Positions 4,580-25,786 are shown, counted from the first letter of the stretch. The stretch is 26,084 bases of DNA from Candidatus Pacearchaeota archaeon (GCA_023144035.1 JAGLGM010000008.1:1-26084); one strand, 5' to 3'. The notes: a model not told the origin generated them from the sequence alone. Program-made: numbers and translations.

Positions 4580-4617
4580 TTGCTATTCCTCTTTTTAATT
4601 AGTTTCATTATTTACTC

Positions 4618-5088
4618 CTAACTTGCTCCAAAGGTAACTGTCCAATCAATCTTTAAAGTATCATTTGCACCTTTTACTACATTCAAACTATCATTATATG
4701 TCATCATATCAGCTCTTGCTGTTGCTGACCCTAAAAATATTCCTGTTTCAGTAATTGATGCTGTTCCTATTCCTGCTCCCCAAAATCCAGAATAAATCAC
4801 ATCGTTATCATTAGCTCCAGTTCCTTGAACTACTCCTGTTCCTGATAATGCTAAAAATGTTCCAGCATTATAAGTTGCTAAATCACTACTTGATGAAGTT
4901 TGTCCTGTTCCTGTACCTAATGCAATCCATCCAATTTGTGAATCACCTTGGTCTGACATTTGGTCTGCTATATGGGCATCCATTAATTCTGTAATTGTAT
5001 TAGGAATTATTATATCTGATTTTATATTTCCATTTTCATCTTTTAGAACTATATGTAATTTCCCTTTTACATTTAAATTTTCATTCAT
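4618..5088 (-). CDS. Virion structural protein, function unknown (156 aa, Gly/Thr-rich)
   Basis: Sits in the structural operon immediately upstream of the fibre gene. Strong SD (ggaggtag) 8 nt before the ATG. Beta-rich composition. No family recognised with confidence. Confidence 0.6.
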   Translation of the reverse strand: MNENLNVKGKLHIVLKDENGNIKSDIIIPNTITELMDAHIADQMSDQGDSQIGWIALGTGTGQTSSSSDLATYNAGTFLALSGTGVVQGTGANDNDVIYSGFWGAGIGTASITETGIFLGSATARADMMTYNDSLNVVKGANDTLKIDWTVTFGAS

Positions 5089-5128
5089 TTTTTCTACCTC
5101 CGTTTTGATTATTTATAATCATTTTTCC

Positions 5129-5536
5129 TTAAAATAATGTACTTCCTCCTAAATTTTTTCTAATAAACATTTTAGAATAAACAGTGCTTCCATTTACATC
5201 CCATGTTTGAATTCCATCCGGTATTATAGTATAAAAATCATTTTGTAATTCAACTACAACTGCTCCACTAACATTACAACTTCCGATATAAAGTACTTTA
5301 TCATTTGTTAATAATTTTCCTTCTTGTAGTAAAAGAGCTTCTGAACTTCCTTGAGAAGATTTTATCGGAAATACAAGTCCACTGACTACATTAGAACCAG
5401 TTTGAGTTTGAATTCTTTCATCATCGTAATCTGATTCAATAAAATTATATTCAATTATATTTATACTTGTAGAAATTCCAGCATGACTAAATAAATTATT
5501 TAGTCCATTTATTAAAGTTGTATTTATATCTGACAT
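5129..5536 (-). CDS. Hypothetical virion (head-tail joining / tail) protein, 135 aa
   Basis: Long ORF in the structural operon. TAAATG junction with the upstream ORF. No recognisable motif. Confidence 0.55.
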   Translation of the reverse strand: MSDINTTLINGLNNLFSHAGISTSINIIEYNFIESDYDDERIQTQTGSNVVSGLVFPIKSSQGSSEALLLQEGKLLTNDKVLYIGSCNVSGAVVVELQNDFYTIIPDGIQTWDVNGSTVYSKMFIRKNLGGSTLF

Positions 5537-5935
5537 TTAACATCCTATTACTCGTTTAAATCTTGTAGTACGTGATAATTCTTTTAATCTTGTTATTGCA
5601 TCTACTCTAAGTTGTTTTGCTAATTCTGCATCACTACTACTATTATTACTTTTAACTGATAAATCACCTAATTTAATATTATCTATTCCACCAGTGTTTG
5701 AATCTATTGCTAATAAAATCTTAGATTGAGTTAAATCTATAATTGCAGGTTGATATTTTTCTGGAATTGCAGAACTAACAATTATATCAGAAGTAAATAA
5801 TTCTACAAAATTAATTTCTTGTTCAACTATACTATTCATATCAGTTCCACTTATAGTAGTTGGTACATTTGTTGGTCCAACTAATTTAGATACTTGTTCA
5901 ACTACTGAACCTACACTCCATATTCCTGATGTCAT
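5537..5935 (-). CDS. Hypothetical head-tail connector/adaptor candidate, 132 aa
   Basis: The call rests on position (third gene after the capsid gene) and size only. Confidence 0.5.
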   Translation of the reverse strand: MTSGIWSVGSVVEQVSKLVGPTNVPTTISGTDMNSIVEQEINFVELFTSDIIVSSAIPEKYQPAIIDLTQSKILLAIDSNTGGIDNIKLGDLSVKSNNSSSDAELAKQLRVDAITRLKELSRTTRFKRVIGC

Positions 5936-5936
5936 T

Positions 5937-6335
5937 TTAAATATATCCTATATTAAATCCTGTTCCTGATTTTGCATTACCTAAGCCACTACCAGTTAGT
6001 CTTAATATTGAATTTATTGGAATTTCTCCATACCATAGTCCAGATTGCGATGAACCATCTGTTCCTCTAGTAATTGCTCGTGGAAATACTACATCTCCAT
6101 CAGCTACATTATTACCAAAAGCTATTCCGCTTTTTAATAATGTTAATCTTTCACCTGTTCCAGAAACAGTTAATTCAAAACTTCCAGTTGCTGTATAATT
6201 ACCACCAGTATACTGAATTGCTTGTAATAAACCATTTAATGGATATGGAATATGAATATCTAAAGTACCAGAACTATTTGCTACTAGACTTCCAGTTGGA
6301 AATCTATATTGTTTTATTCGATTGCTTCTTACCAT
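5937..6335 (-). CDS. Hypothetical virion protein, 132 aa
   Basis: Strong SD (aaaggaggtaaaaa) before the ATG at 6335. Beta-rich. Lies in the structural operon. Confidence 0.6.
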   Translation of the reverse strand: MVRSNRIKQYRFPTGSLVANSSGTLDIHIPYPLNGLLQAIQYTGGNYTATGSFELTVSGTGERLTLLKSGIAFGNNVADGDVVFPRAITRGTDGSSQSGLWYGEIPINSILRLTGSGLGNAKSGTGFNIGYI

Positions 6336-14241: not shown

Positions 14242-14862
14242 TTAATTTATTATTTTAACACCAGATTTAAATCCTTGAAATAAACTTGGTTTTGATTTTC
14301 CTTTAATAGAAAATGCTGTAGCTGCTAATGCAATAGCATTTACAATATCGTCATGAGTTCTAGCTTCATGAGAGATTTTTGGTAATCGTTCTGGATTATC
14401 TTTATGATATTCAGCTGTAATAGATAAGAATTGAAAATACATTTTTTTATCAATAGCTCGTTTTGTATCTTGATATCGTGGTATATGTAATCTCCCTTCA
14501 TCTCTTGTCATTAATATTTTTAAATTATTAAACATTTCTACTTTAATTTTTTGAGTATACCAAATTCCTTCTATTTTGGGTCCTATTTTTTTCTTTAATA
14601 CATCTGTAACTCCAGCCCCAAGTCCAGTAGTATCTACTATAATTTTTTTAAAGTTAAATATTTTATCTAAAAATTCTGCTCTGTCAATTACTTCTGTTAA
14701 ATCAGGAGTATGTTTAGCTTCCATATATACTACAAATATATCATCTTGAAATGGTAATTGTTCTAAAATTACAAATGCTGTTTCATCTTTTCCAGTTCTT
14801 GCAACGTCAATTCCTAAAATGTATATTGATTTTTGATTATATTCTGCTGTTGGAGTTATCAT
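14242..14862 (-). CDS. terL: Terminase large subunit, nuclease (RNase H-like) domain as a separate ORF (206 aa)
   Basis: IYILGIDVARTGKDETAFVIL, VDTTGLGAGVTD and RTHDDIVNAIALA match the acidic catalytic motifs of TerL nuclease domains. The SD-like GAGGT lies 7 nt before the ATG. The ORF starts at the codon right after the TAA of the ATPase ORF. Confidence 0.8.
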   Translation of the reverse strand: MITPTAEYNQKSIYILGIDVARTGKDETAFVILEQLPFQDDIFVVYMEAKHTPDLTEVIDRAEFLDKIFNFKKIIVDTTGLGAGVTDVLKKKIGPKIEGIWYTQKIKVEMFNNLKILMTRDEGRLHIPRYQDTKRAIDKKMYFQFLSITAEYHKDNPERLPKISHEARTHDDIVNAIALAATAFSIKGKSKPSLFQGFKSGVKIIN

Positions 14863-15639
14863 TTATAATACCTCAAATAAATTATAATTTAATTCAGATT
14901 TTTCTAATATATGTGGAGGAAAAAATCCCATAGCATCTGCAACAAATTCACTTTCATATTCACATCGAAATTGAACATCTGTTAATTCTGCCTTTTCATC
15001 ATCTATAAATTTTTGAGTATATTGTCCAACTTTTACTGCGTCTCTCCATGTTACATTTATTACTTCATAATTCGTATCTTCATAACAACTTCTATAAAAA
15101 TGATTTCTTCTTAGTGGAGTTCCAATTTTAATAACTTGTCCTTTATCGCCTTTACTAGCTAAATATGGTATAAGTACAGAACCCACAACTTCATCTTCCA
15201 TATCTCCTGCTTCTTCAATTATTAAAATATCACAAGTATGTCCTCTTTTAGTTCTTCCTCCATGTGCGCAAGTTATACTTAATATTACACTCCTATTATT
15301 AAATATTAATTCTGATTGTGTATCCTTTTTTAATAAAGCTTGAATGTCTGGATTTTCACTTATCAATTCTCTGATTTTACTATACATTAAATTACTTTGG
15401 TCTTGAATAGGTGCTGCTATTATTATAGTTGTTTTTTCTAAAATAGCCATTAGTAAAATATAAATCGCAACCGCTTGACTTTTTCCTGATTGTCTTGACC
15501 ATTTACCAACTATCTTTCGATAGTTTAAACATTTCATTAAGAATTTTGTTTGATAGAAATATAATTTATAATTAAATAGAAAATCAACAGTATCAAATAA
15601 TAAGTCTTCGTCGTTTTTAAGTTCTTCAATTGTGAACAT
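14863..15639 (-). CDS. terL: Terminase large subunit, ATPase domain as a separate ORF (258 aa)
   Basis: Walker A is GKWSRQSGKSQAV and Walker B is CDILIIEEAG. The size matches a TerL N-terminal domain. The ORF ends in TAA at 14863-14865, directly followed in frame by the ATG of the nuclease ORF. Confidence 0.8.
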   Translation of the reverse strand: MFTIEELKNDEDLLFDTVDFLFNYKLYFYQTKFLMKCLNYRKIVGKWSRQSGKSQAVAIYILLMAILEKTTIIIAAPIQDQSNLMYSKIRELISENPDIQALLKKDTQSELIFNNRSVILSITCAHGGRTKRGHTCDILIIEEAGDMEDEVVGSVLIPYLASKGDKGQVIKIGTPLRRNHFYRSCYEDTNYEVINVTWRDAVKVGQYTQKFIDDEKAELTDVQFRCEYESEFVADAMGFFPPHILEKSELNYNLFEVL

Positions 15640-15946
15640 TTTCTATATCAATTATTTTTACTCCTTCTTTTTCTGCTTTATTCATTTCTGCTCTTGTCTC
15701 CATCCATTTTTTCATTTTATCGTCAAAGTTTTGTACTTGTAGATTTAGATTTTTCACAGTTGCAGGCCAGAATGATTGTTTCATTTTCATTAACATATCT
15801 AACATTTTACTATTCATTCCAAAGTCATCATGAATATTTGCTTCTTTGGCACAAGCTTCTAAAAATTTGGATGCTAAATCTCTAATTCGTCTTTCAGTAA
15901 GAACTACTTCCGCACCATCTTTTATTAGTACAATTTCATCTGTCAT
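15626..15946 (-). CDS. Putative small terminase subunit (106 aa), by position only
   Basis: Overlaps the TerL ATPase ORF start by 14 nt and is the first gene after a terminator. Small helical protein. No motif-level support. Confidence 0.35.
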   Translation of the reverse strand: MTDEIVLIKDGAEVVLTERRIRDLASKFLEACAKEANIHDDFGMNSKMLDMLMKMKQSFWPATVKNLNLQVQNFDDKMKKWMETRAEMNKAEKEGVKIIDIENVHN

Positions 15947-15991
15947 TTTAAATAAAAAAATAAATAAAATAAGGAATTATTTATTCCTTAT
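15947..15991 (-). terminator. Intrinsic terminator between the early-type ORFs and the packaging genes
   Basis: 9-bp perfect stem ataaggaat (15969-15977) / attccttat (15983-15991) with a 5-nt loop. It overlaps the stop codon of the 171-aa ORF. On the minus strand it is followed by UUUUAUUUAUUUUUUUAUUU. Confidence 0.6.
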
Positions 15992-16496
15992 CGTCTTTTA
16001 TATCAGAACTTTCTACTACTGGATTTTCTTTTTTATCTGTAAAGTTTTTCTTTAACCATTTTTCAAAACTTTCTACTTTATTAATTGGAACAAATAAACT
16101 TATTTTATTTCCTCTTGGTTTACATATAAATCTGTATCTTACTCCAATATTAACTTCTTGCATTATTCCATCTTTTAACTTAATAGTTTTTGCATCCTTT
16201 TGTTCTAAAAATGTGAATCTACTTAATTCTCCATATTTTTCAAAATCAAAATCAAGTTTATAATTTTCTTCATTTACATTTAATGAAGAAGCAATACTAC
16301 TTGCTTTTGCTATAGAATATTCTTCGAAATCCATTCTTGCATTATATAAGTCATATGGTAAGTATTTACTTTGATATTTTGATTGAACTTTTGCAAGTTC
16401 TTTTAAAAATGCAGATAGAAATTCTACTGAATCAACTGAGATTATATCTGTTTTTTCAGTATCTGTTAATGGTCTGATTATATTAAAATTTGTCAT
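15981..16496 (-). CDS. Hypothetical protein, 171 aa
   Basis: ORF with an ATGA-type overlap to the upstream gene. No family recognised. Confidence 0.55.
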   Translation of the reverse strand: MTNFNIIRPLTDTEKTDIISVDSVEFLSAFLKELAKVQSKYQSKYLPYDLYNARMDFEEYSIAKASSIASSLNVNEENYKLDFDFEKYGELSRFTFLEQKDAKTIKLKDGIMQEVNIGVRYRFICKPRGNKISLFVPINKVESFEKWLKKNFTDKKENPVVESSDIKDDKE

Positions 16497-17358: not shown

Positions 17359-17560
17359 TTATTTTATCCTGAGTTAATATATTTCCTTTTTCCTTGTCAC
17401 TCTTATTTGTTCCTTTTATTCTATTTACTTTTATACCTTTTTGTTCAAGTGCATCACAAATGCCAATTAAAATCCCTGAATCATCCATTGTAATTTCTAT
17501 TACATCCATTTCAACTAAATCATCTACTAAATCTGTAAATTTACATTTATATTTATTCAT
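17342..17560 (-). CDS. Hypothetical protein, 72 aa
   Basis: ORF overlapping both neighbours by a few codons. No motif recognised. Confidence 0.45.
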   Translation of the reverse strand: MNKYKCKFTDLVDDLVEMDVIEITMDDSGILIGICDALEQKGIKVNRIKGTNKSDKEKGNILTQDKISEEER

Positions 17561-19466
17561 TTTTCTTTATTAATAAATTTAATATGGTATCTTTTTCTAA
17601 ATCTTCCATTGATAAATTAATATCACATTCATCTGGATTATCAACTAATACTGCTCCAGCAGTTTCAAGTAAATCATTTAATGTTATTGCATTTTTATAA
17701 AAATTAAATAAATAATTTCTACTTTTTTCAGTAGTTTCTAAATTACCAGAAGTTATTGAATTACCTAAATATGATTCTGTAAAATAAAATCTACATTCAT
17801 TTGGTTCAGTTGTTACAAGTCCTAATACTTTTTGTCTTTGGTTTATTTTTGTTTTTGCGATTCCAATAACATTATTTGGATTAACCATATAATTTCTAGT
17901 AAATCTAGTTATTTGGTCTTCTGCTACTAACATTTTAAATGGGACTTCAATTTTTTCATTATAATTATAATAATTTAACATTACTATAAAAGATTCATTT
18001 TCTTGTTTCTTCATATAAAATAATTCTGAAGCACCTTTTGGTTTTGGAGCAGCAGTTAAATCTCCTGAAAATAAAACATTTCTTTCATCATCTCTATATC
18101 TTCCATCCCAACCTATTTTTCCTTGAGTTGCATTTATAATAGATAAATCTAAGTCAATAGTGTGGCTTCCTACGTCTTCCCAATGAATCCCAAATACCAT
18201 ATCTTTTGGAATTGTAATATAAGTTCCTGATGGTAAATTTCCTGTAAATTGTTTTTCTGTTGCTGGTAATGTATATTTAACATTTTCTGGAATGTATATT
18301 TTTTTACCATCTACATTTTGTTTCATATCTGAAATAATAGATTCGATAACTAATTTAAAAACATGTTTTGCTACTATTTTATTTTCAAAATTAAAATCTG
18401 TTGAATATGATTTACCATTTCTAATTTTATACATAATTGAATCTGCATCTTCTGTTCGAAATTTTAATGCATATGCTAATCTTATTTTTCTAAATATATT
18501 AACTTTTGAAAGTTCATTTGTTAATTTATGTATTGGTTCTTGTAATATACTTCCATCTTTAATTTTAGCAGTTATATTATTAAGATAATCTTCTGGCATT
18601 GGTTTATGAAATATATTTGCATATTTTCTAATTCTATTTATATAACTATTTAATTGAATATTAGTTTTAAATGCTAAAAATATTGGTTTAAATCTATAAA
18701 ATATTTTTGATAATTCTTCTAGTCCATATTTTCTTTTATATTTTGTAAATAATACATTGATATTTAAATTATTTTTTCCTTTAATATCTTCTATTAAATC
18801 TTTATTTTTTATTAAAAGAGTTTTACCTGTAGATTTATATACAATATACCTTAAAAATTCTATTGGAATTCTTGGTATAATATTTAGATAATCATATAAC
18901 ATTATTTTAACTTCTTTATTTTTAATATTTTCAATTTCTTCATTTGTAATTTCTAAAAAAGTTGCTAAATCTGTAACATCTATTATAGTTTCTTCTGCTA
19001 ATGCTATTCCTGAATTTAAAAGTTTTAATAATTTTTCTTTTAATTCTTCTTTTGTATATCCTTTAATAACTGTTAATTTTATTTTATCTAATTCTATTTC
19101 TGGAACATCTAATTGTTCGGTTGGAATATAAACAGAATCTTTATCATAAATTCCTAATCTTTGAAATCCATAAGTTGTAATATAATGAATTATTTGTTCA
19201 ACTACTAATTGTTCTATACTTGCATCTCTAACTTTTTGCCATGATTTGTGAAAAGAATTATTCATTTGCTCACCTGTTAATCCAACTTCTTTTTCTACTA
19301 AAGTTATTAAATTACTTAATTCAACTTGAGAATAATTATCAACAACTTCTTTAGAGAAAATAAATCCTTTTGGAATGGTTTCTTCCAATATTCTTCTAGG
19401 ATAATCTCTTGTAAGTTTTTGTAATTCTATTGGTACTGCTTTGAAAAGTTTGATTGTTGATTTCAT
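17553..19466 (-). CDS. Large hypothetical protein (637 aa): unknown ~420-aa N-terminal region plus a TerD-like C-terminal beta-sandwich domain
   Basis: First gene of the minus-strand operon. The C-terminal segment is VFGIHWEDVGSHTIDLDLSIINATQGKIGW...VLFSGDLTAAPKPKGASELF...FIVMLNYYN. By eye it aligns with the TerD pattern GLGWD...DLDASAFLL...H(T/S)GDNxTGEGxGDDE...IIFVVTIHD. Confidence 0.7.
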   Translation of the reverse strand: MKSTIKLFKAVPIELQKLTRDYPRRILEETIPKGFIFSKEVVDNYSQVELSNLITLVEKEVGLTGEQMNNSFHKSWQKVRDASIEQLVVEQIIHYITTYGFQRLGIYDKDSVYIPTEQLDVPEIELDKIKLTVIKGYTKEELKEKLLKLLNSGIALAEETIIDVTDLATFLEITNEEIENIKNKEVKIMLYDYLNIIPRIPIEFLRYIVYKSTGKTLLIKNKDLIEDIKGKNNLNINVLFTKYKRKYGLEELSKIFYRFKPIFLAFKTNIQLNSYINRIRKYANIFHKPMPEDYLNNITAKIKDGSILQEPIHKLTNELSKVNIFRKIRLAYALKFRTEDADSIMYKIRNGKSYSTDFNFENKIVAKHVFKLVIESIISDMKQNVDGKKIYIPENVKYTLPATEKQFTGNLPSGTYITIPKDMVFGIHWEDVGSHTIDLDLSIINATQGKIGWDGRYRDDERNVLFSGDLTAAPKPKGASELFYMKKQENESFIVMLNYYNYNEKIEVPFKMLVAEDQITRFTRNYMVNPNNVIGIAKTKINQRQKVLGLVTTEPNECRFYFTESYLGNSITSGNLETTEKSRNYLFNFYKNAITLNDLLETAGAVLVDNPDECDINLSMEDLEKDTILNLLIKKNE

Positions 19467-19499
19467 TTTTCTTTTTTTAATTAAGACGGGAGGTAAATA

Positions 19500-19525
19500 T
19501 AGAATGGGTATATATACCCATTCTA
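19500..19525. promoter_or_regulatory. Perfect 26-bp palindrome (candidate operator or RNA hairpin) in the divergent control region
   Basis: tagaatgggtata|tatacccattcta is perfectly self-complementary. It lies 34 nt upstream of the 637-aa gene start and contains the ATG of the SD-preceded small plus-strand ORF. Confidence 0.6.
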
Positions 19526-19635
19526 ACAGTTTTAATGTTAGTATTAGGAACCTCGTATGTCTTAAATATAATTGGCGAGGAGTAAATGGTTACATCAAAT
19601 TGTATTATATATTAGGAACTCCTTGTGCCTTATAA
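19504..19635 (+). CDS. Candidate small protein, 43 aa
   Basis: Internal start of the supplied 19441..19635 ORF. GGGAGGT at 19488-19494 lies 9 nt before the ATG at 19504. Translation: MGIYTHSNSFNVSIRNLVCLKYNWRGVNGYIKLYYILGTPCAL. The region is less AT-rich than other intergenic DNA. It could instead be non-coding regulatory sequence. Confidence 0.35.
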   Translation: MGIYTHSNSFNVSIRNLVCLKYNWRGVNGYIKLYYILGTPCAL

Positions 19636-19648
19636 TATAATTATTAAT

Positions 19649-19684
19649 TATAAGTTTATAAATATATTTATAATAGATTATATA
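19649..19684 (+). promoter_or_regulatory. Upstream module copy B (RNA-repair operon)
   Basis: 33 of 36 identical to 10571-10606. It is followed at 19736-19752 by AATAAAAAGATTTAAATA, matching AATAAAAAGTATTTAAAT at 10627-10646. That core ends 29 nt before the ATG at 19781, which has no SD. Confidence 0.6.
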
Positions 19685-19780
19685 TAATATAGTATATATG
19701 ATAGATTATAATAATATGTTTTCATTCTATAATGAATAAAAAGATTTAAATACTAATTTAAATTAAATATATTAAATAAG

Positions 19781-20878
19781 ATGGTAGAAGAAAAAATAGT
19801 AACTTTATTAAAAGAAGTGGAAAGAATTATGAGTCCTTATAATATATATGCTGTTGGTGGATGTGTAAGAGATTCACTTTTAGGAGTTGAACCAAAAGAT
19901 TATGATTTCTGTACAAATGCATCTCCAGATGAAATTGAAGAAAAAGTAAAAGCAGATGGTAAAAGAGCATATTTAACTGGTAAAAGATTTGGAACTATTG
20001 GATTTAAAATAGAATATGAAGGTAAATTTGAAATGATAGAAGTTACTACTTTTCGAACAGAAGAATATGAAAAAGGAAATCGAAAACCTGATGTTAAATT
20101 TGTAAAAAATATACAAATTGATTTAGGTAGACGTGATTTTACAATCAATGCAATGGCAATGAGATTAACAAATGATGGAAAATTAAGATTAATAGACCCC
20201 CATGATGGTGAAGAAGATTTATTAAAATGGAGATTAATTAGATGTGTTGGTAATCCTAAAATGAGATTTAAAGAAGACCCATTAAGAATGTTGAGAGCAA
20301 TTAGATTTAGTTGTAGATTTAATTATGAAATTGAACAAAAGACAATGGAAAAAATGATGAGTGGAGCAATACAAATTTTAAATATATCGAAGGAAAGATG
20401 GATGATGGAATTAGATAAAATATTACAATCAGAAAATGTAGAAAGAGGATTAATGGATTTATGGCAATCTAATTTATTTAAATTTATGATTCCTGAATTA
20501 GAACTAATGAGTGACTATGACCAAAATTCTCAATATCATCCTTGGAAATTAGATGTTCATACAATTAAAGTAGTTGAAGCTGTTAGAAAAGAAACAGATG
20601 ATTTGAATATGTTATGGGCTGGATTATTACACGATATTGCTAAACCGTTTATAAGAACAAATAAAACATTAAAAACTTCTGGAGAACAATTAAAACAAGG
20701 ACGAACATATAAATCAAACTACATTGGACATGAAATATTAGGAGCAGAAATGGTAAATAGAATTGCTACTCATTTAAATTGGTCTAAAGAAAGACATGAA
20801 AAAGTTGTTGAGTTAGTTAGAAATCACTTAGAAAATGATTGTCCTTTGAGAAAATTTGACCAGGAGGGTAAGAAATGA
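19781..20878 (+). CDS. cca: Class II tRNA nucleotidyltransferase (CCA-adding enzyme) with C-terminal HD phosphohydrolase domain (365 aa)
   Basis: Motifs GGCVRDSLLG...KDYDF, RRDFTINAMA and EDPLRMLRAIRF mark the PolyA_pol head and neck. WAGLLHDIAKP...GHE marks the HD domain. Confidence 0.85.
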   Translation: MVEEKIVTLLKEVERIMSPYNIYAVGGCVRDSLLGVEPKDYDFCTNASPDEIEEKVKADGKRAYLTGKRFGTIGFKIEYEGKFEMIEVTTFRTEEYEKGNRKPDVKFVKNIQIDLGRRDFTINAMAMRLTNDGKLRLIDPHDGEEDLLKWRLIRCVGNPKMRFKEDPLRMLRAIRFSCRFNYEIEQKTMEKMMSGAIQILNISKERWMMELDKILQSENVERGLMDLWQSNLFKFMIPELELMSDYDQNSQYHPWKLDVHTIKVVEAVRKETDDLNMLWAGLLHDIAKPFIRTNKTLKTSGEQLKQGRTYKSNYIGHEILGAEMVNRIATHLNWSKERHEKVVELVRNHLENDCPLRKFDQEGKK

Positions 20879-21264
20879 CAGACATAATAATTTACACAAC
20901 AAAAGAAGTTTTAGAACATAAAAAGAAAGATGGAATTGGAAAGAAAGGAGATTATTGTTACTGGACTTTTAAAAATAAACCTCAAAAATTAAAGAGGTTT
21001 GATAGAATTTATTTTGCTATTGATAAAAAAATTATTGGTTCTTTTAGAATACACGATATTTGTGGAAATAGACAAGGGTGTTCTCCACCACATTATTATA
21101 GTGAAGAAAAAAATAAGTCAATAAGTCAAGAAGAAAGTCTTGATAGTAGAAGTGATAATATTGAAATTCATTTCTTTAGTGAATCTTGGGAAAATATTAA
21201 ACCAATTCTGACAAAACCATTTCAAGGATTTAAATATGCTGATAAAGTTATAGAATTAAAATGA
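20875..21264 (+). CDS. Hypothetical protein, 129 aa (possible small PUA/ASCH-like beta-barrel)
   Basis: ATGA overlap with cca. The pattern RIYFAIDKKIIGSFRIHDI ... FQGFKYADK weakly recalls ASCH/PUA-like domains. This is a guess. Confidence 0.5.
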   Translation: MTDIIIYTTKEVLEHKKKDGIGKKGDYCYWTFKNKPQKLKRFDRIYFAIDKKIIGSFRIHDICGNRQGCSPPHYYSEEKNKSISQEESLDSRSDNIEIHFFSESWENIKPILTKPFQGFKYADKVIELK

Positions 21265-21268
21265 AAAA

Positions 21269-21664
21269 ATGACAGACGAAATAAAAATACCATACAAACA
21301 ATATGTAATAGTACCTAGAAAACCTAAAATGAGTAAAGGTAAAATCGCAAGTCAGGTGGCTCACGCTACATTCATGGCTTTGGAGAATCAAAAAAATATA
21401 CCTTTAAGAGCTGGCAATTTACCATCTGGATATTTAATTGAAGAATGGAAAAATAAAGGAATGTGTGTTATTGTTTTACAATGTAAAGATGAACAAGCAT
21501 TAAATAACATGGCCAAATATTTAGAACAATGGAATATTTCACATCACCTTTATATTGATGAAGGATTATATGGATGTAAACTATTTACAGCAACTGCTCT
21601 TGCTACAGGAGTATTAACAGAAGAACAATATTGGATGTTTGATAATATGAGGTTGTTTAAATGA
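21269..21664 (+). CDS. Peptidyl-tRNA hydrolase, PTH2 (archaeal/eukaryotic) type (131 aa)
   Basis: KMSKGKIASQVAHATFMAL matches the hallmark PTH2 motif (M)GKGK(L/I)AAQ(V/C)(A/S)HAA. It is followed by W...G..(V)IVL(Q)..DE..L and a C-terminal TA.A.G segment, as in PTH2. Size is typical. Confidence 0.75.
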   Translation: MTDEIKIPYKQYVIVPRKPKMSKGKIASQVAHATFMALENQKNIPLRAGNLPSGYLIEEWKNKGMCVIVLQCKDEQALNNMAKYLEQWNISHHLYIDEGLYGCKLFTATALATGVLTEEQYWMFDNMRLFK

Positions 21665-21939
21665 CATTTAATATATTTAAAAATAAAAAAGAAAAATATA
21701 ATCCAATTTTTAAAATTGGAGACCACGTGGTTTTAATAAAAAATGAAGAATATGCTTATAGTAATCCAATGTATATTTATGAAGTCACTAAGGTTAATAT
21801 TGAAACTATATATGTCCACGGAATTCTTGTTAATATTAATTATATTAATATAAAAAATTGTTGTGGTGGTGGAGAACATTGTGGATTAGATGCTGATAAA
21901 TTTAGATTAATAAGAAGAAAGAAGTGTTATAAAAAATAA
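21661..21939 (+). CDS. Hypothetical protein, 92 aa
   Basis: ATGA overlap with the PTH2 gene. Contains NCCGGGEHCG. No family recognised. Confidence 0.5.
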   Translation: MTFNIFKNKKEKYNPIFKIGDHVVLIKNEEYAYSNPMYIYEVTKVNIETIYVHGILVNINYINIKNCCGGGEHCGLDADKFRLIRRKKCYKK

Positions 21940-21940
21940 A

Positions 21941-23137
21941 ATGAAACAAATATATTACAATAAAGAACAACAGAAAATACCAATTAAGAGTTGGGTAACT
22001 GATATAGAAAGTGGAGCATTAGACCAAGCTAAAAATTTATCTAAAATACCATTCGCATTTAAGCATATAGCATTAATGCCAGATGCTCATCAAGGATTCG
22101 GAATGCCTATTGGAGGAGTAATGGCTACTAAGAATGTTGTAATCCCGAACGCGGTCGGGGTAGATATCGGTTGTGGAATGTGTTCTGTTAAAACATCTAT
22201 AAAAGTTGAAGATTTTGATATTGATACTCTTAAAAAAATAATGGGAGAAATAAGAAAAACTATTCCTGTTGGTTTTAGTCATAGGCAAACTTCATGTGAA
22301 GATAAAGAAATGCCATTAGGAGCTAAACCAATTTATATGAAAATAGTTTCTGAAGAATGGGCATCTGCAAGTAATCAATTAGGAACTCTTGGTGGAGGAA
22401 ATCATTTCATTGAAATGCAAAAAGGAGATGACGGATTTATTTGGATTATGATTCATAGTGGAAGTAGAAATTTAGGACATAAAGTAGCAAGTCATTATAA
22501 TAATATTGCTAAAGAATTAAATAAGAAATGGGCTTCAAGTATTCCTCCTTCTTATGATTTAGCATTCTTACCTTTAGATAGTAATGAAGGAAAAGCATAT
22601 TTAGAAGAAATGGATTATTGTGTTGAATTTGCTTTAGCTAATAGACAAAAAATGATGGACGATATTCAAAATATTATTTATAGTATTATGTTTGATGATA
22701 AAAAAATAGATGTAGAATATCAACCAATGATTAATATAGCTCATAATTATGCAGTAATGGAAAATCATTTTGGAGAAAATGTAATGGTTCATAGAAAAGG
22801 TGCAACAAAAGCTACTAAAGGATTAAAAGGAATTATTCCAGGTAGTCAAGGAACTTGTAGTTACATAGTTGAAGGATTAGGTAATAAAGAAAGTTTTCAA
22901 TCATGTAGTCATGGAGCTGGAAGAAAAATGGGAAGAAAAGATGCTCAAAGAAGATTAAATTTAGAAGAGGAAAAAACTAAATTAGAAGAAAAAGGAATTA
23001 TCCATTCAATTAGAAATGTAAAAGATTTAGATGAAGCATCTGGAGCATATAAAGATATTGACCAAGTCATGGTCAATCAAAATGACCTAGTTAAAATTTT
23101 AGTTAAATTAGAGCCGTTGGGGGTTATTAAGGGATGA
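21941..23137 (+). CDS. rtcB: RtcB RNA 3'-phosphate/2',3'-cyclic phosphate ligase (398 aa)
   Basis: Essentially all signature motifs are present: PDAHQGFGMPIGGV, GVDIGCGM, GGGNHFIE, HSGSRNLGH, AHNY, HRKGAT, PGSQG and SCSHGAGR (the guanylylated His region). Confidence 0.95.
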   Translation: MKQIYYNKEQQKIPIKSWVTDIESGALDQAKNLSKIPFAFKHIALMPDAHQGFGMPIGGVMATKNVVIPNAVGVDIGCGMCSVKTSIKVEDFDIDTLKKIMGEIRKTIPVGFSHRQTSCEDKEMPLGAKPIYMKIVSEEWASASNQLGTLGGGNHFIEMQKGDDGFIWIMIHSGSRNLGHKVASHYNNIAKELNKKWASSIPPSYDLAFLPLDSNEGKAYLEEMDYCVEFALANRQKMMDDIQNIIYSIMFDDKKIDVEYQPMINIAHNYAVMENHFGENVMVHRKGATKATKGLKGIIPGSQGTCSYIVEGLGNKESFQSCSHGAGRKMGRKDAQRRLNLEEEKTKLEEKGIIHSIRNVKDLDEASGAYKDIDQVMVNQNDLVKILVKLEPLGVIKG

Positions 23138-23559
23138 TGGAAAAAATAAATATATTAATAAAAAAAGGAATAGTCAAAAGAAAACCTGGTTATTTATATT
23201 ATATAAATAGAGAAGGAGATTTATATGCAGTAGAAGCAAAAAAAGGACGAGAAAAAGGAGATGAAAAAAATAAATCATGTATAAGAAAGAATAAAATAAT
23301 TAGAAATTTAGAAGAAGAAAAAGAAGATTTAAAATTAAAATATAAACTTAAAAAGAAAAAACAAATTAGAAATTTAAAAGAAGAAAAACAATTTTTTAAA
23401 TTAAAATGTAAACTTAAAAAGAAAAAACAACTTGAACAAATTAAAGAAGATATAGATAATAAACTTAATGGATTAGAATTCGATAGAAGTAAATTTATGA
23501 AAAATTGGTGGAAAGAAAATAAAAATAAAAATGAAATCAAAAATTCTAAAATTAATTAA
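23134..23559 (+). CDS. Lys-rich repeat protein, 141 aa
   Basis: ATGA overlap with rtcB. The N-terminal segment is GIVKRKPGYLYYINREGDLYAV. Two 22-aa repeats follow (IRNLEEEKEDLKLKYKLKKKKQ / IRNLKEEKQFFKLKCKLKKKKQ). Low-complexity sequence, so coding status is less certain than for its neighbours. Confidence 0.5.
   Translation: MMEKINILIKKGIVKRKPGYLYYINREGDLYAVEAKKGREKGDEKNKSCIRKNKIIRNLEEEKEDLKLKYKLKKKKQIRNLKEEKQFFKLKCKLKKKKQLEQIKEDIDNKLNGLEFDRSKFMKNWWKENKNKNEIKNSKIN
23298..23429 (+). repeat. 66-bp tandem duplication (2 units) inside the Lys-rich ORF
   Basis: Units 23298-23363 and 23364-23429 both start aattagaaattta and end taaacttaaaaagaaaaaaca. They are about 90 percent identical by eye and stay in frame (22 aa). 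Confidence 0.85.
23526..23558 (+). repeat. 33-bp direct repeat, copy 1 (spans the stop of the 141-aa ORF and the start of the 71-aa ORF)
   Basis: taaaaatgaaatcaaaaattctaaaattaattaaa versus 23704-23736 taaaaatgaaatcaaaaattctaaaactaataaaa, with 2 mismatches. Confidence 0.9.
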
Positions 23560-23746
23560 AGAAGTACCAGAATTAAAATCAAATCGATGGTATGAAATTC
23601 CATTACATATCATTCATGAATGTTGTGTTTGTGGTAATGAACATGAAGTAAAATTTAAAATAAAAAATAATACATTATACACAAAATGGAAAGGAATTAA
23701 TACTAAAAATGAAATCAAAAATTCTAAAACTAATAAAAAAGATTGA
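23531..23746 (+). CDS. Small Cys/His-containing protein, 71 aa
   Basis: Starts MKSKILKLIK, identical to the start of the next gene because of the 33-bp direct repeat. Contains HECCVCGNEHE. Overlaps both neighbours. Confidence 0.45.
   Translation: MKSKILKLIKEVPELKSNRWYEIPLHIIHECCVCGNEHEVKFKIKNNTLYTKWKGINTKNEIKNSKTNKKD
23704..23736 (+). repeat. 33-bp direct repeat, copy 2 (spans the end of the 71-aa ORF and the start of the nucleotidyltransferase ORF)
   Basis: See copy 1. The offset is 178 bp. Confidence 0.9.
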
Positions 23747-24467
23747 AGAAGAAAAAGATATAAAAGTAATTTTCGCAGTAGAATCTGGAAGTAGGAGTTG
23801 GAACTTTGCATCTAAAGATTCAGATTATGATGTTCGATGTGTTCATGTATCTAAAGTTAAGAAATATCTTAGTCTTGTTAATCCTCCAGAACAAATTGAA
23901 AGTTTAAATGATGTAGAAAATATAGATTTAGTATCATGGGATATAAGAAAGTTTCTAAAATTATTATTTAATTCGAATCCGACTTGTAGTGAATGGTTAA
24001 ATTCATCCATTATTTATATTGATAGTTTTTATAGAACTCAATTAAAAGAAATATTTGAAAAAGGATTTTCTAAATATGCTTTAAAGAAACATTATATTTC
24101 TATGGCAAGACAAAATTATGAAAAATATATTAGAAATAAAAATCCATGTTCACTTAAAAAATATGTTTATGTATTAAGAAGTCTTGCTTGTGTAGAATGG
24201 TTAATTTATAAAAAAGAAATTCCTCCAATAAAATATAATGATGTTATGAAAATTCTTCCAGAAAAATTAAGAAAGTTTTTTGAAGAGTCAGTTAAGTTGA
24301 AGAAATCTGGTGAGGATACTAAAGGTTCACAAAATGAGCCAGTAAATCGGTTAATTGAAAAATATTTTGATATTGAATTTGAAAAAGATGAAGATGATTT
24401 TAATATTGAGATTTTGCATCGAGTTCTTCGAACTGTAATTACATTGCAAGGAAGTGAAATAAAATGA
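23709..24467 (+). CDS. Pol-beta-superfamily nucleotidyltransferase, RlaP-like (PF10127-type) (252 aa)
   Basis: FAVESGSRSWNFASKDSDYDVRCVH matches the GS-x(9-10)-SDxDxR nucleotidyltransferase signature of the family I remember as RlaP (RNA repair pathway Pol-beta family), which is often linked to RtcB. Confidence 0.7.
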   Translation: MKSKILKLIKKIEEEKDIKVIFAVESGSRSWNFASKDSDYDVRCVHVSKVKKYLSLVNPPEQIESLNDVENIDLVSWDIRKFLKLLFNSNPTCSEWLNSSIIYIDSFYRTQLKEIFEKGFSKYALKKHYISMARQNYEKYIRNKNPCSLKKYVYVLRSLACVEWLIYKKEIPPIKYNDVMKILPEKLRKFFEESVKLKKSGEDTKGSQNEPVNRLIEKYFDIEFEKDEDDFNIEILHRVLRTVITLQGSEIK

Positions 24468-24871
24468 AAAAATTAATACGAATAAAATCTAAATCAAAAG
24501 GAAAAAAACTATCGAGAAAAAAATACAGAACAGATATAGAAGAAATAATGGAAAAAGGATTAATAAGTATTGGTTTAACTGGTTATATTTTTGATACTGG
24601 AATTAGAAGTAAATATGGATATCGTCCTGATTTTATGTGGCCAGATATTAAATTCGGAATTGAATGTGATGGTGAACATTGGCATAAACGAACTAAAAAA
24701 CAATTTGAACATGATAGGAAAAAAAATGGATATTTTAAAAGTAAAGAATGGATGATATTACATTTTTCAGGAACAGAAATTAAAACTGATATTCATACTT
24801 GTATAAACAAGATTAAAATAGAAATAAGAAGGAGGAAAAAGAAATATGGAAACAATAAAAGTAAAGATTGA
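24464..24871 (+). CDS. PD-(D/E)xK endonuclease-fold protein, DUF559/Vsr-like (135 aa)
   Basis: YRPDFMWPDIKFGIECDGEHWH fits the D...E.D/ExK core of DUF559-type endonuclease domains. Both termini are basic. ATGA overlap with the upstream gene. Confidence 0.6.
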   Translation: MKKLIRIKSKSKGKKLSRKKYRTDIEEIMEKGLISIGLTGYIFDTGIRSKYGYRPDFMWPDIKFGIECDGEHWHKRTKKQFEHDRKKNGYFKSKEWMILHFSGTEIKTDIHTCINKIKIEIRRRKKKYGNNKSKD

Positions 24872-25373
24872 AGGAACTGCACCATTACTTATGCATAGAT
24901 TTGCAGAAGAAGAAGCTTCTATGAAAAGTGCAAGAACTAAAAGAGTTTATATAGCAGAAGATGAAGCTGAAAAAGCTGCATATAGAAACACTGCTGGTAA
25001 ATTATGTTTACCAACAAGACATTTTAAAGCTTCTATGACTAAAGCTGGAGTAGAACTTATTTTTAAAGGAAGAAAAACATATAAAGATTATATCAAATCT
25101 GGTATTATTTTTAAAGAAGTAGAAACTGTTTTAGACCAACAAAAATATGTAATAGATTCTGTTCCAGCAGTTATTAATCGAGCAAGAATAATGAGACATA
25201 GACCAAGATTTGATAAATGGTCTTGTGAATTTGAATTTGATATAATTGATGAAGCATTAGATGTTACTAATGTTAAACAAATACTTGAGTCAGCTGGAAA
25301 GTATAAAGGTGTTGGAGATAATCGACCTGAATTCGGAAGATTTAAAGTAACAGAATTTAAGAAAATTAAATAA
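24846..25373 (+). CDS. Hypothetical protein with RAMP-like (Cas7/Csm3-like) motifs, 175 aa
   Basis: Strong SD AGGAGGA 9 nt upstream of the ATG. IKVKIEGTAPLLMHRF is a beta-strand plus xPLhhH motif. GKLCLPTRHFKASMTKAG resembles the RAMP motif P(Y/I)IPGSS(L/I)KGALR. The C-terminal GKYKGVGDNRPEFGRFKV resembles the RAMP glycine-rich loop. The CDS call is firm; the family call is tentative. Confidence 0.8.
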   Translation: METIKVKIEGTAPLLMHRFAEEEASMKSARTKRVYIAEDEAEKAAYRNTAGKLCLPTRHFKASMTKAGVELIFKGRKTYKDYIKSGIIFKEVETVLDQQKYVIDSVPAVINRARIMRHRPRFDKWSCEFEFDIIDEALDVTNVKQILESAGKYKGVGDNRPEFGRFKVTEFKKIK

Positions 25374-25382
25374 CTTAATTAT

Positions 25383-25786
25383 TATATTCAATATTGTTAT
25401 GTTGGGTTTTAGTGAGTTGAGTTAAGGTACGTTAAGTTAGGATAAGTTTTGTTGAGTTAAGGTAGGGATTTAATTATCCCTATCATTTTTTATATTCAAC
25501 TAAGTTGCGTTTAGTTAGGTTATGATGAGTTATGATGAGTTTTTGTTTGATTCGTTGAGTTAAGTTGAGTTTTGTTATGGTAAGGAATCATACTTATATT
25601 CACTTGAGTTATGGATTGTTCAGTTAGGTTATGAATTGATAGGTTACGGTATGATGTGTTACGTTTTGTTCAGTTGGGATAAGTTAAGGTAAGGAATTAT
25701 ATTCATATTCAACTTTGTTGTTATCAGGTTAGTTAAGTTACGTTAAGTTGTAGTTGGTTGTGTTAAGGTATGGTAAATTAAAAAAC
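25383..25786 (+). repeat. Non-coding, C-depleted, G+T-rich array of four ~105-bp degenerate tandem units
   Basis: TATATTCA anchors sit at 25383, 25491, 25595 and 25698 (spacing 108/104/103). GGTAAGGAAT occurs at 25579 and 25688, with the variant GGTAGGGATT at 25461. My hand count for 25381-25780 is about 96 G versus 23 C. Stops occur in every frame. Confidence 0.85.
25463..25491 (+). terminator. Weak hairpin + T-run terminator candidate downstream of the plus-strand operon
   Basis: tagggat (25463-25469) / atcccta (25476-25482) form a 7-bp stem with a 6-nt loop, followed by tcatttttt. The stem is short with only 3 G-C pairs. It lies inside unit 1 of the repeat array. Confidence 0.4.

Follow-up and report, generated by a model that had tools for sequence, protein, structure and literature searches.

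A viral operon for four tRNA-end enzymes close to a tRNA array: probable part of a virus-encoded tRNA supply and maintenance system

Genetic organization of the operon

The DNA analysed here (the window; 26,084 nucleotides, GCA_023144035.1 JAGLGM010000008.1:1-26084) belongs to a viral contig of 88.7 kb, which was deposited under a Candidatus Pacearchaeota MAG. Its source is an uncultured tailed virus with a genome of about 89 kb, whose hosts are possibly DPANN archaea. Between positions 19781 and 25373, the plus strand carries a run of tightly packed genes. A preliminary description had seen an island of nine genes here, and ORF1 to ORF9 are indeed present, all on the plus strand. However, ORF10 has to be added as the tenth gene of the same transcription unit, and the base composition of the region is like that of the rest of the virus, hence it is not an island in the compositional sense. 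The proposed coupling of genes by ATGA start/stop overlaps was found at all four positions (20875, 21661, 23134 and 24464); the remaining junctions measure +4, +1, -29, -38 and -26 nt, the largest intergenic gap inside the operon being 4 nt. ORF1, the first gene, has no Shine-Dalgarno sequence, while the later genes overlap their predecessors or follow at minimal distance, five showing a Shine-Dalgarno-like motif. ORF10 (175 aa, 24846-25373) has a strong Shine-Dalgarno sequence (AAGGAGG) and matches phrog_4652, a family of unknown function (2e-26); no close viral relatives of it were found.

The operon is probably transcribed from a divergent AT-rich control region (19467-19780), located between a gene for a 637-aa protein on the minus strand and ORF1. 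This region contains a palindrome with perfect 11-bp arms, AGAATGGGTATATATACCCATTCT (about 19500-19523), two copies of the repeat ATTAGGAACYYC (19543 and 19611) and two TATA-like boxes, TTTATAAATA at 19655 and TTTAAATA at 19745, the latter 28 nt ahead of the ATG of ORF1. Its predicted folding is pronounced on both strands (z about -4.3), one control-region motif occurs four times compared to 0.6 expected occurrences, and a search against Rfam gave no match. We infer that it serves as promoter or operator, or possibly as leader or small RNA. At the other end (25396-25493, plus strand), a G/T-rich tandem repeat with a 35-nt unit (25396-25464) leads to a terminator-like hairpin (25461-25484) with adjoining T-run, and the transcription unit most likely ends at this hairpin and T-run (25461-25493).

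Enzymes acting on tRNA ends

Protein families were assigned by Pfam searches and cross-checked by PHROGs and NCBIfam, which both agree with Pfam. All five family calls made before (CCA-adding enzyme with HD domain, PTH2, RtcB, RlaP and a DUF559-like protein) were recovered by the profiles PF01743/PF01966, PF01981, PF01139, PF10127 and PF04480.

ORF1 (365 aa, 19781-20878) encodes a class II tRNA nucleotidyltransferase, with head and neck of the CCA-adding type and an HD/HDIG phosphohydrolase domain (PF01743, 5e-32; PF12627, 2e-14; PF01966, HD, 8e-10). Its best PDB match is a CCA-adding enzyme (6ibp, 1e-40), and it also matches NCBIfam TIGR02692 at 6e-70, which is under the model cutoff, and PcnB poly(A) polymerase models at 2e-44. 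Generally, CCA-adding enzymes, A-adding enzymes and poly(A) polymerases are poorly separable from sequence alone. The CCA motifs G26-G27-x-x-R-D, D40xD42, R117-R118-D119 and E165-D166-x-x-R169 are kept, as are the HD residues H253 and H284-D285. ORF1 represents a short form, in which the C-terminal tRNA_NucTran2_2 tail of longer viral homologs is missing. ORF3 (131 aa, 21269-21664) is a PTH2-type peptidyl-tRNA hydrolase (PF01981, 1e-19; NCBIfam Pth2 NF003314, 2e-15, under cutoff) with conserved K25 and D97. It reads D97-E-G-L-Y101, in contrast to DAGLT in two aligned archaeal Pth2 enzymes, and this Thr-to-Tyr change in a conserved motif makes its activity uncertain. A tblastn search with ORF3 against cultured phages gave no match.

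ORF5 (398 aa, 21941-23137) is an RtcB 3'-phosphate/5'-OH RNA ligase (PF01139, 8e-115) of a short form closest to bacterial-type models. Its metal-binding residues and the His nucleophile are all intact; D75, C78, N154/H155, H172, H268, the nucleophile H324 and R328 correspond to the residues of the Pyrococcus horikoshii enzyme. ORF8 (252 aa, 23709-24467) belongs to the RlaP family of Pol-beta nucleotidyltransferases (PF10127, 7e-56); the match is full length (profile positions 1-229 of 249) and includes the motif G27-S28 ... S38-D39-x-D41-x-R43. The claim of clear catalytic motifs holds for the CCA/HD enzyme, RtcB, RlaP and ORF9 (see below), and the catalytic residues of the cassette enzymes are intact, except for the change in the DEGLY motif of PTH2.

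Accessory ORFs

The remaining ORFs had been regarded as candidate healing, specificity or anti-toxin components, and synteny with rtcB or cca had been set beforehand as the test. Such synteny is not conserved: no homologs of ORF2, ORF4, ORF6 or ORF7 were found in 80 viral RtcB loci. ORF2 (129 aa, 20875-21264) belongs to a family of 63 homologs without Pfam match, in which IIIYTT, HK, IYFA..G.I.G.F and FQGFKYADKV are invariant. Its predicted structure (pLDDT 82) points to an ASCH/PUA-like fold, with ZmASCH (5y6c) as best match (Foldseek probability 1.0, TM about 0.5). In five contexts of ORF2 homologs, including those with 83% and 59% identity, rtcB, cca and PTH2 genes are never adjacent; at one locus an RlaP gene lies about 3 kb off, with many unrelated small ORFs between. 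ORF2 is a mobile small gene, elsewhere not syntenic with RNA-repair genes. ORF4 (92 aa, 21661-21939, 22% GC) is an orphan, whose sole relative among 1.84 billion representative proteins is the distant P0195 (263 aa, E = 3e-8). The orphan ORF6 (141 aa, 23134-23559, 18% GC) is Lys/Glu-rich, contains an internal 66-nt tandem duplication (23250-23381) and has zero relatives among 5.8 billion proteins. The singleton ORF7 (71 aa, 23531-23746) is situated between copies of a direct repeat (23509-23578 and 23687-23756; 80% identical, 97% in a 29-nt core), which duplicates the junction of ORF6 end and RlaP start. Its first 10 residues equal the N-terminus of RlaP, and its C-terminus closely resembles that of ORF6, the core NEIKNSK being common to both. 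ORF7 therefore looks like a cassette inserted at the ORF6/RlaP junction.

ORF9 (135 aa, 24464-24871) had likewise been proposed as a repair component but turned out to be a DUF559/Vsr-like protein of the restriction-endonuclease-like type. Its match to PF04480 (DUF559, 3e-5) is above cutoff, those to MTES_1575 and Vsr are below theirs (NCBIfam Vsr, 2e-5, also under cutoff), and PHROGs assigns it to phrog_559 ('HNH endonuclease') and other endonuclease families. It carries the signature D56 ... E67-x-D69-x-x-H72-x-H74 and a Lys-rich N-terminal tail. For this nuclease, a selfish or DNA-directed action is more probable than a function in RNA repair. We regard ORF2, ORF4, ORF6, ORF7 and ORF9 as lineage-specific or mobile passengers outside the core, although ORF2, with its RNA-binding-type fold, or ORF10 may have a role here even in the absence of synteny.

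tRNA genes, RNase P RNA and RNA ligase on the same contig

About 800 nt from the operon, and starting 72 nt beyond the end of the window, the same contig carries an array of about 26 tRNA genes, with each of the 20 amino acids represented (21 predicted by ARAGORN, two by Rfam and, by manual inspection, a Tyr-like, an Ala and one odd tRNA-like gene; the tRNA-Ala has G3:U70 and A73). None of the 22 tabulated genes encodes the 3'-CCA, and two of the manual finds, the Ala and the odd tRNA-like gene, are likewise without it. ARAGORN with intron search detected introns in none of the viral tRNAs; the one 153-nt 'gap' resolves into two tRNAs of normal length. Within the array lies an RNase P RNA of archaeal type (RF00373, 95.3 bits compared to a gathering score of 84, E about 1e-27), in which the conserved regions CR-I to CR-V could be aligned. 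Downstream of the array, an ATP-dependent RNA ligase is encoded (PF09414, 4e-22); no 5'-kinase that would complete its pathway was identified in the virus, and neither Pnkp nor Rnl1 was found. Of the 80 viral RtcB loci, 38 lie no more than 10 kb from tRNA genes, and the nearest viral homologs of ORF5 (55-66% identity) are often immediate neighbours of tRNA-Pro or of tRNA clusters. A CCA homolog within 10 kb occurs at only three of these loci and a weak RlaP-like match at only one or two.

Discussion

We propose, with a probability of roughly 0.6, that the region represents the protein-encoding half of a viral system for the supply and maintenance of tRNA. The viral tRNA genes lack an encoded 3'-CCA, therefore CCA addition is obligatory in their maturation. 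The CCA-adding/HD enzyme would build the missing ends on all of the about 26 viral tRNAs and could also rebuild trimmed ones, while its HD domain may strip 2',3'-cyclic or 3'-phosphates. PTH2 would release tRNA from dropped-off or stalled peptidyl-tRNA, and RtcB would rejoin cut tRNA halves with 2',3'-cyclic phosphate or 3'-phosphate and 5'-OH ends. RlaP is predicted to restore one or two nucleotides on over-trimmed 3'-OH ends, a product whose chemistry would suit the ATP-dependent ligase past the tRNA array and not RtcB. Together with the array and the RNase P RNA, the operon would allow the virus to produce, mature, recycle and repair tRNAs of its own, although substrates, division of labour and timing of the enzymes are inferred. 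The NCBIfam equivalog scores, all under cutoffs, and the missing tRNA-binding tail of ORF1 count against this explanation.

A narrower reading takes each enzyme as the counter to one host weapon against tRNA, namely anticodon nucleases, damage to the 3' end or blocking of the acceptor end, and the small ORFs as novel factors for healing, specificity or anti-toxin action; it is tentative at about one chance in four. RtcB and RlaP are repair enzymes that take no part in the normal biogenesis of bacterial tRNAs, and since the viral tRNAs are intronless, the presence of both enzymes is naturally explained by some nuclease threat. The ASCH fold of ORF2, with ZmASCH as best structural match, is of a nucleic-acid-binding kind. 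The view that RtcB, RlaP, CCA enzyme and PTH2 help a virus to withstand attacks on tRNA, already taken in the preliminary description, agrees with the published interpretation for jumbo phages (PMC7824862). RlaP as RNA-repair enzyme now has biochemical support, and it is proposed to act against wobble-excising nucleases such as RloC (PMC12776372). However, the conclusion from three lesions to several tRNA-targeting host systems exceeds the data: the adjacent CCA-less tRNA genes fully account for the CCA enzyme, so that no 3'-end-damaging host defence need be assumed, and their array also contains the RNase P RNA. Moreover, no cassette protein matches known defence or anti-defence families, and the small ORFs are orphans or without conserved synteny. 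It is simpler to read the operon as a module that matures and maintains the viral tRNA set.

It is improbable that we deal with a general RNA-metabolism module, in which ORF1 would be a poly(A)- or A-adding polymerase marking RNA for decay, RtcB and RlaP would act on mRNA, rRNA and other RNAs, PTH2 would be degenerate and the proximity of the tRNA array coincidental. The PcnB matches, the absent tail of ORF1, the Thr-to-Tyr change in PTH2 and the acceptance of various damaged RNAs by RlaP in vitro (PMC12776372) would fit, but the EDxxR and RRD motifs are retained in ORF1, whose best scores are those to CCA-adding enzymes, four tRNA-end enzymes share one operon close to a complete tRNA array with RNase P RNA, and tRNA-adjacent RtcB recurs in other viruses.

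In archaea, RtcB is the splicing ligase. A purely biogenetic operon, in which RtcB would splice intron-containing viral or host tRNAs, could be invoked from this housekeeping role, the archaeal MAG, the archaeal type of the RNase P RNA and the suggested intron removal by HGTV-1 ligases (PMC8651126), but it is very unlikely, because RtcB is not needed for splicing of intronless viral tRNAs, ORF5 is nearest to bacterial-type models and RlaP has no splicing role.

The cassette is real, but a viral tRNA maintenance kit of this kind is already known. In phage T4, Pnkp and Rnl1 repair anticodon loops cut by PrrC; the logic that a virus mends nuclease-cut tRNA is the same, whereas chemistry and proteins differ and RtcB would seal ends directly, without separate end-healing. 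HGTV-1, a tailed virus of archaea (Halomagnusvirus; Liu et al., 2021), likewise has tRNAs for the full set of 20 amino acids, together with a CCA enzyme to which tRNA maturation is assigned, an RtcB assigned to viral tRNA repair and ATP-dependent (Rnl2) ligases (PMC8651126). Compared by gene content only, PTH2, RlaP and RNase P RNA are not listed for HGTV-1, whereas its lysyl-tRNA synthetase was not seen in the present virus, where the four enzymes form one tightly packed operon beside the array; the hosts of HGTV-1 are haloarchaea in contrast to the putative low-GC DPANN archaeon here. In jumbo phages the same four families are found, as are phage-encoded tRNAs and ligases of the ATP-grasp type (Iyer et al., 2021, PMC7824862, section 3.4.9; building on Burroughs and Aravind, 2016), however as genome-level repertoire of phages above 200 kb and not as single operon in a genome of about 89 kb. 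In Pseudomonas, the Rtc operon rtcB-rlaP-rtcA is controlled by RtcR, and RlaP adds one or two NMPs to damaged 3'-OH ends, a product fitting 5'-P ligases and not RtcB, which needs a 3'-P (PMC12776372). The present operon also encodes RtcB and RlaP near each other, but is without RtcA cyclase and RtcR and has two orphan ORFs between the genes; the separate ATP-dependent ligase encoded elsewhere on this contig could circumvent the chemical mismatch.

The most unusual feature is the virus-encoded RNase P RNA, which is located outside the window. Since a CCA enzyme, RNase P and a ligase are presumably present in the host as well, the viral counterparts may be additional rather than necessary. If our reading is true, the system would protect viral translation when host tRNAs are unsuitable, in short supply or attacked by nucleases.

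Organisation of the operon and its control region

The sequence of the window is an exact match to an 88.7-kb contig (L086) of NCBI assembly GCA_030671505.1, and its genes for a tail fibre, an HK97-type capsid protein, portal and terminase are those of a tailed virus. The nine plus-strand ORFs at 19781-24871 are present exactly as in the preliminary description, and the ATGA start/stop overlaps at 20875, 21661, 23134 and 24464 are real. Moreover, a tenth plus-strand gene (ORF10, 24846-25373, phrog_4652) overlaps the ninth by 26 nt. Beyond it follow two copies (74% identical) of a 35-nt G/T-rich tandem repeat at 25396-25464, directly 5' of a terminator-like hairpin with T-run at 25461-25493 as the apparent operon end. 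Hence, the transcription unit comprises ten genes (ORF1 to ORF10), and the largest intergenic gap within it is at most 4 nt. A Shine-Dalgarno sequence is missing at ORF1, and strong ones precede several internal genes. The base composition of the operon region is not distinct from the remainder of the virus. Searching the island with blastn against cultured phages returned no close relative, only a 35-nt word match in RtcB, and IMG/VR contained no close relative of the present virus.

Within the divergent promoter region, the segment 19480-19640 is strongly structured, with a fold z of approximately -4.3 on both strands, and contains a perfect palindrome with 11-bp arms as well as two ATTAGGAACYYC repeats spaced 68 nt apart. 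An operator and a small RNA are both possible for this segment; with the palindrome at its centre, the fold signal agrees with a DNA operator no less well than with an RNA. A Y-like RNA was rejected here, because no Y RNA match was obtained and neither strand folds more strongly than the other. The TATA-box-like 10-mer TTTATAAATA is found at position 19655 within the operon control region. The same 10-mer occurs in each of two AT-rich units of about 62 nt on the minus strand of L086 (approximately 15830-15960), inside the tRNA array of this contig, where these units may be internal promoters of the archaeal type.

Enzymes encoded in the operon

Profile searches support the families assigned earlier from the sequence (CCA-adding/HD enzyme, PTH2, RtcB, RlaP and a DUF559-like nuclease), with concordant calls from Pfam, PHROGs and NCBIfam for the operon enzymes. 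The Pol-beta head of ORF1 (PF01743, 5e-32) contains G26-G27-C-V-R-D31 and the motif A residues D40-Y-D42. Motif B (RRDFTINAMA, 117-126) is identical in the solved CCA-adding enzyme 6ibp, to which ORF1 aligns with 1e-40, and motif D (EDxxR; EDPLRMLRAIRF at 165-176) differs from 6ibp in one residue. The EDxxR motif serves as the amino-acid template that selects CTP and ATP. The HD phosphohydrolase motif is formed by H253, H284-D285, H317 and H349/D353 (PF01966, 8e-10), and the HDIG model TIGR00277 scores exactly at its cutoff. By its motifs, ORF1 is thus a class II tRNA nucleotidyltransferase head and neck joined to a C-terminal HD/HDIG domain. The tRNA_NucTran2_2 body/tail, which binds the tRNA elbow, is present in the viral homologs of loci L082, L085 and L010 and absent from both the 365-aa ORF1 and the 331-aa homolog of locus L053; relative to the longer viral homologs ORF1 is, as judged from its domain composition, a short form. 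It stays below every NCBIfam equivalog cutoff, the best being TIGR02692 with 236 bits against a cutoff of 439, and PcnB also matches (152 bits).

The PTH2 of ORF3 is recognised by PF01981 (1e-19, 71 bits against a cutoff of 23) and by Pth2 entries of the PDB with up to 2e-6, whereas NCBIfam equivalogs remain below their cutoffs. The KGK lysine K25 and D97 are conserved. Its motif DEGLY (Y101) stands in place of the DAGLT of the archaeal Pth2 structures 24bt and 1wn2; mutagenesis of the S. solfataricus Pth2 reportedly indicated that the Thr of DAGLT contributes to catalysis. No match to ORF3 was found among cultured phages by tblastn.

RtcB (ORF5; PF01139, 8e-115) has all metal ligands and the GMP-accepting His nucleophile in place: D75, C78, N154/H155, H172, H268, H324 and R328 align with D95, C98, N202/H203, H234, H329, H404 and R408 of P. 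horikoshii RtcB. The RlaP encoded by ORF8 covers profile positions 1-229 of 249 of PF10127 (190 bits) and shows the Pol-beta catalytic motif G27-S28 and S38-D39-Y-D41-V-R43. Two RNA ligases are encoded near it, RtcB 570 nt upstream in the same operon and an ATP-dependent ligase (PF09414) approximately 6 kb downstream.

ORF9 matches PF04480 with 24.2 bits (cutoff 20.6), while Vsr and MTES_1575 matches are below their cutoffs and PDB sequences gave no match. Its D...ExD..H signature is represented by RPDFMW and IECDGEHWH (D...ExD..H.H). ORF9 resembles DNA endonucleases scattered through such viral genomes and is more plausibly a selfish or DNA-acting nuclease than a member of the repair set. According to a recent publication (PMC13096335), a homing endonuclease located in the T4-type tRNA region amplifies this locus and can thereby help to evade immunity; as a parallel for ORF9, this is a lead, not evidence. 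When all ten operon proteins were scanned with PADLOC for defence-system components or toxins, no meaningful match appeared, only two marginal ones (E approximately 0.004, 13-15 bits).

The small interleaved ORFs

ORF2 belongs to a well conserved family of 63 proteins. Its predicted structure (pLDDT 82, pTM 0.75) is an ASCH/PUA-like beta-barrel, for which the top nine structural matches are Zymomonas ASCH chains and the VcaM4I restriction endonuclease, followed by the ASCH domain of TRIP4, EVE and YTH domains; the top matches have probability 1.0 at TM scores of 0.47-0.54. A Pfam sequence match was not obtained, so membership is by fold only, and the model suggests that ORF2 is an ASCH/PUA-like protein, a fold that binds nucleic acids. 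In none of five contexts examined, including those of homologs with 83% and 59% identity, is an ORF2 homolog adjacent to rtcB, cca or PTH2. Instead, these homologs are neighboured by genes for HNH nucleases, integrases, a restriction-modification pair or lipid synthesis; in one context an RlaP gene is found approximately 3 kb off, with many unrelated small ORFs in between.

For ORF4, exhaustively searching 1.84 billion representative proteins yielded a single distant relative; ORF6 has no homolog among 5.8 billion proteins, and ORF7 is a singleton. The Lys/Glu-rich ORF6 (18% GC) contains an internal 66-nt tandem duplication at 23250-23381, which encodes the repeated IRNL(E/K)EEK...KLK.KLKKKKQ. 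ORF7 is bracketed by a direct repeat of 45-70 nt (23509-23578 and 23687-23756) that duplicates the ORF6/RlaP junction, and therefore it has the first ten residues of RlaP as well as a C-terminal stretch closely resembling that of ORF6. This arrangement suggests that ORF7 is a cassette inserted by recombination at the conserved ORF6/RlaP junction. The three orphans are the most AT-rich genes of the operon (18-22% GC compared to 25-31% for the enzyme genes).

The interleaved ORFs had been proposed as candidates for new healing, specificity or anti-toxin components. As conserved partners they do not hold up: there is no conserved synteny with rtcB or cca, since none of the 80 viral RtcB loci from IMG/VR contains a homolog of ORF2, 4, 6, 7, 9 or 10 and the ORF2 contexts are unrelated. 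A viral-contig scan with ORF10 likewise found nothing.

A tRNA array and an RNase P RNA beside the operon

On the minus strand of L086 (14216-16616, equivalent to window positions 26156-28556), a tRNA array with 2-4-nt spacers starts 72 nt beyond the window end. It contains approximately 26 tRNA genes and covers all 20 amino acids. ARAGORN reported 21 tRNAs, Rfam added Arg(UCG) and Cys(GCA), and analysis of the remaining gaps by hand yielded three more: a tRNA-Ala(UGC) that has the G3:U70 identity pair as well as A73, a Tyr(GUA)-like gene and, at 16318-16389, an odd tRNA-like gene whose anticodon loop (AACUAA) comprises 6 or 8 nt. A tRNA-Ile(UAU) is included, and the Tyr-like and Ala tRNAs have non-canonical T-loops (UGCAACU). 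A 3'-CCA is encoded in none of the 22 tRNA genes tabulated and is also absent from the hand-found Ala and odd tRNA-like genes. Introns were not detected in the tRNA genes of this array; a 153-nt gap was considered as an intron-containing tRNA needing RtcB and rejected, because the gap is made up of tRNA-Ala(UGC) plus another tRNA-like gene.

Between two of the tRNAs lies a 224-nt RNase P RNA (L086 14517-14740, minus strand), which matches the archaeal model RF00373 end to end with 95.3 bits (gathering score 84, E approximately 1e-27). Its alignment to the model retains the conserved core regions and lacks two peripheral elements. A literature search that reached part of the journals gave no report of an RNase P RNA encoded by a phage or an archaeal virus. 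Reduced bacterial type-A RNase P RNAs are present in two further large viral contigs of IMG/VR among the RtcB loci sampled, in L034 (204 kb; 19035-19322, 167 bits) flush between two tRNAs and in L042 (176 kb; 2351-2653, 177 bits) within a tRNA array. Hence, viral RNase P RNA appears to be recurrent, with at least three viral contigs including L086.

Other structured RNAs also adjoin tRNA arrays: tmRNA in loci L070, L073, L080 and L076 and GOLLD RNA in L070, L073 and L080, both at approximately 3500-6050 and at most 10 kb from the viral RtcB. They belong to a recurring cluster of tRNA arrays, structured RNAs and RtcB in large phages.

Further along L086, the ATP-dependent RNA ligase (PF09414, 4e-22) and a DUF7919 protein are encoded with an ATGA overlap on the plus strand (18166-19490), followed on the minus strand (20129-21109) by a metallophosphoesterase-like protein of 326 aa that weakly resembles the small subunit of archaeal PolD.

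Other genes of the window

A 637-aa protein without Pfam or PHROG family is encoded on the minus strand at 17553-19466. Its family has at least 1,890 members, all approximately 57-64% identical, on big environmental viral contigs, where the genes sit among those for nucleotide metabolism and replication. In the model (pLDDT 83), a helical domain forms the N-terminal part and a TerD-like beta-sandwich the C-terminal part, with no PDB neighbour and full-length matches to other phage proteins. Given this architecture and neighbourhood, the idea of a Ro/TROVE-like partner was rejected.

The terminase large subunit (14242-15639, minus strand) is divided between two ORFs, one for the ATPase (14863-15639) and one for the nuclease (14242-14862). 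Both halves share one reading frame, and between them stands a single TAA that is directly followed by ATG. Readthrough, a true two-gene terminase and a sequencing or assembly artefact are all possible. Readthrough by a CUA-anticodon suppressor tRNA was rejected, since the stop codon is TAA and the anticodon loop is irregular.

Comparison with known systems

The combination of RtcB, RlaP, CCA-adding enzyme and PTH2 is not new in kind. In jumbo phages, these four enzymes together with tRNAs and ATP-grasp ligases have been interpreted as a response to tRNA attacks (Iyer et al. 2021, PMC7824862). The archaeal tailed virus HGTV-1 encodes tRNAs for all 20 amino acids, Rnl2 ligases, a CCA enzyme assigned to maturing and RtcB assigned to repairing viral tRNAs (Liu et al. 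2021, PMC8651126). The cassette therefore adds one compact example to a category known from T4, jumbo phages and HGTV-1, and no new repair components. Particular to the present virus are the four-enzyme operon, the genome of only approximately 89 kb and a host that is possibly a DPANN archaeon. Single-sequence phmmer searches, within their sensitivity, showed the four enzymes in one operon in none of the 80 viral RtcB loci; a CCA homolog occurs in only three, a weak RlaP-like match in one or two, and the viral-contig scan with RlaP found nothing. tRNAs are located within 10 kb of RtcB in 38 of the 80 loci, and in the nearest RtcB relatives the gene directly abuts tRNA genes. In contrast to the bacterial Rtc operon (RtcB-RtcA-RtcR), the RtcA cyclase and RtcR were not found among the scanned ORFs of the window and the L086 genes. 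The T4-type Pnkp/Rnl pathway differs as well: a ligase (PF09414) is present here, but neither Pnkp nor any other 5'-kinase was detected in the window or L086.

The same proteins have been deposited under a MAG of Candidatus Pacearchaeota, a DPANN archaeon, together with a "phage major capsid protein". A DPANN host is considered possible on several indirect grounds: this binning, the archaeal-type RNase P RNA, the HVO_A0114-like and PolD-small-subunit-like neighbours, and the binning of relatives of the 637-aa protein with Methanophagales and Promethearchaeota. However, both the CCA enzyme and the short RtcB resemble bacterial types, which keeps this assignment at the level of a possibility. 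The search through cellular genomes gave a sole match, to a 4-kb contig of an Aminicenantes MAG, and this is not informative for the host.

Proposed function of the operon in viral tRNA metabolism

The preliminary description had interpreted the island as a counter-defence cassette against anticodon-loop breaks, 3'-end damage and blocked acceptor ends. This interpretation changes once the adjoining tRNA array is taken in. Because the approximately 26 viral tRNA genes need post-transcriptional CCA addition, the predicted CCA enzyme would have an obligatory maturation job, and a host weapon against tRNA 3' ends need not be invoked, since the CCA-less tRNA genes account for this enzyme. Together with the RNase P RNA, it would provide both end-processing activities for the viral tRNAs from the virus itself, and PTH2 would recycle tRNA from peptidyl-tRNA. 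For RtcB and RlaP, in contrast, the lack of introns leaves no part in biogenesis, and both are best read as putative repair enzymes. Counter-defence is hence retained as one use of the operon and given up as its sole rationale. The most economical explanation is an operon for maturation, recycling and repair of the virus-encoded tRNA pool.

RlaP leaves a 3'-OH that RtcB cannot use, which the authors of the RlaP study raise as an open problem (PMC12776372). The downstream PF09414 ligase is a predicted, chemically compatible partner for this product. With RlaP accompanied by RtcB as a 3'-P ligase and also by a 5'-P ligase, the present virus offers a natural system for the question of how the 3'-OH is ligated.

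Generally, we propose, with a probability of roughly one in three, that this approximately 89-kb virus encodes a nearly self-contained tRNA production line, which would free viral translation to a large extent from dependence on a host that is reduced or hostile. Such a line would consist of tRNA genes for the 20 amino acids, a miniaturised archaeal-type RNase P RNA for 5' processing, the tail-less CCA-adding/HD enzyme for 3' completion and PTH2 for recycling. Two complementary repair routes may be added, RtcB alone and RlaP with the ATP-dependent ligase. The operon would then represent the protein arm of a virus-encoded system of tRNA biogenesis. If this proposal is true, RNase P RNA encoded by a virus would constitute a new class among the auxiliary RNA genes of viruses and, if the RNase P RNAs in viral tRNA arrays are confirmed, viruses would carry a catalytic RNA of the core tRNA-processing machinery.
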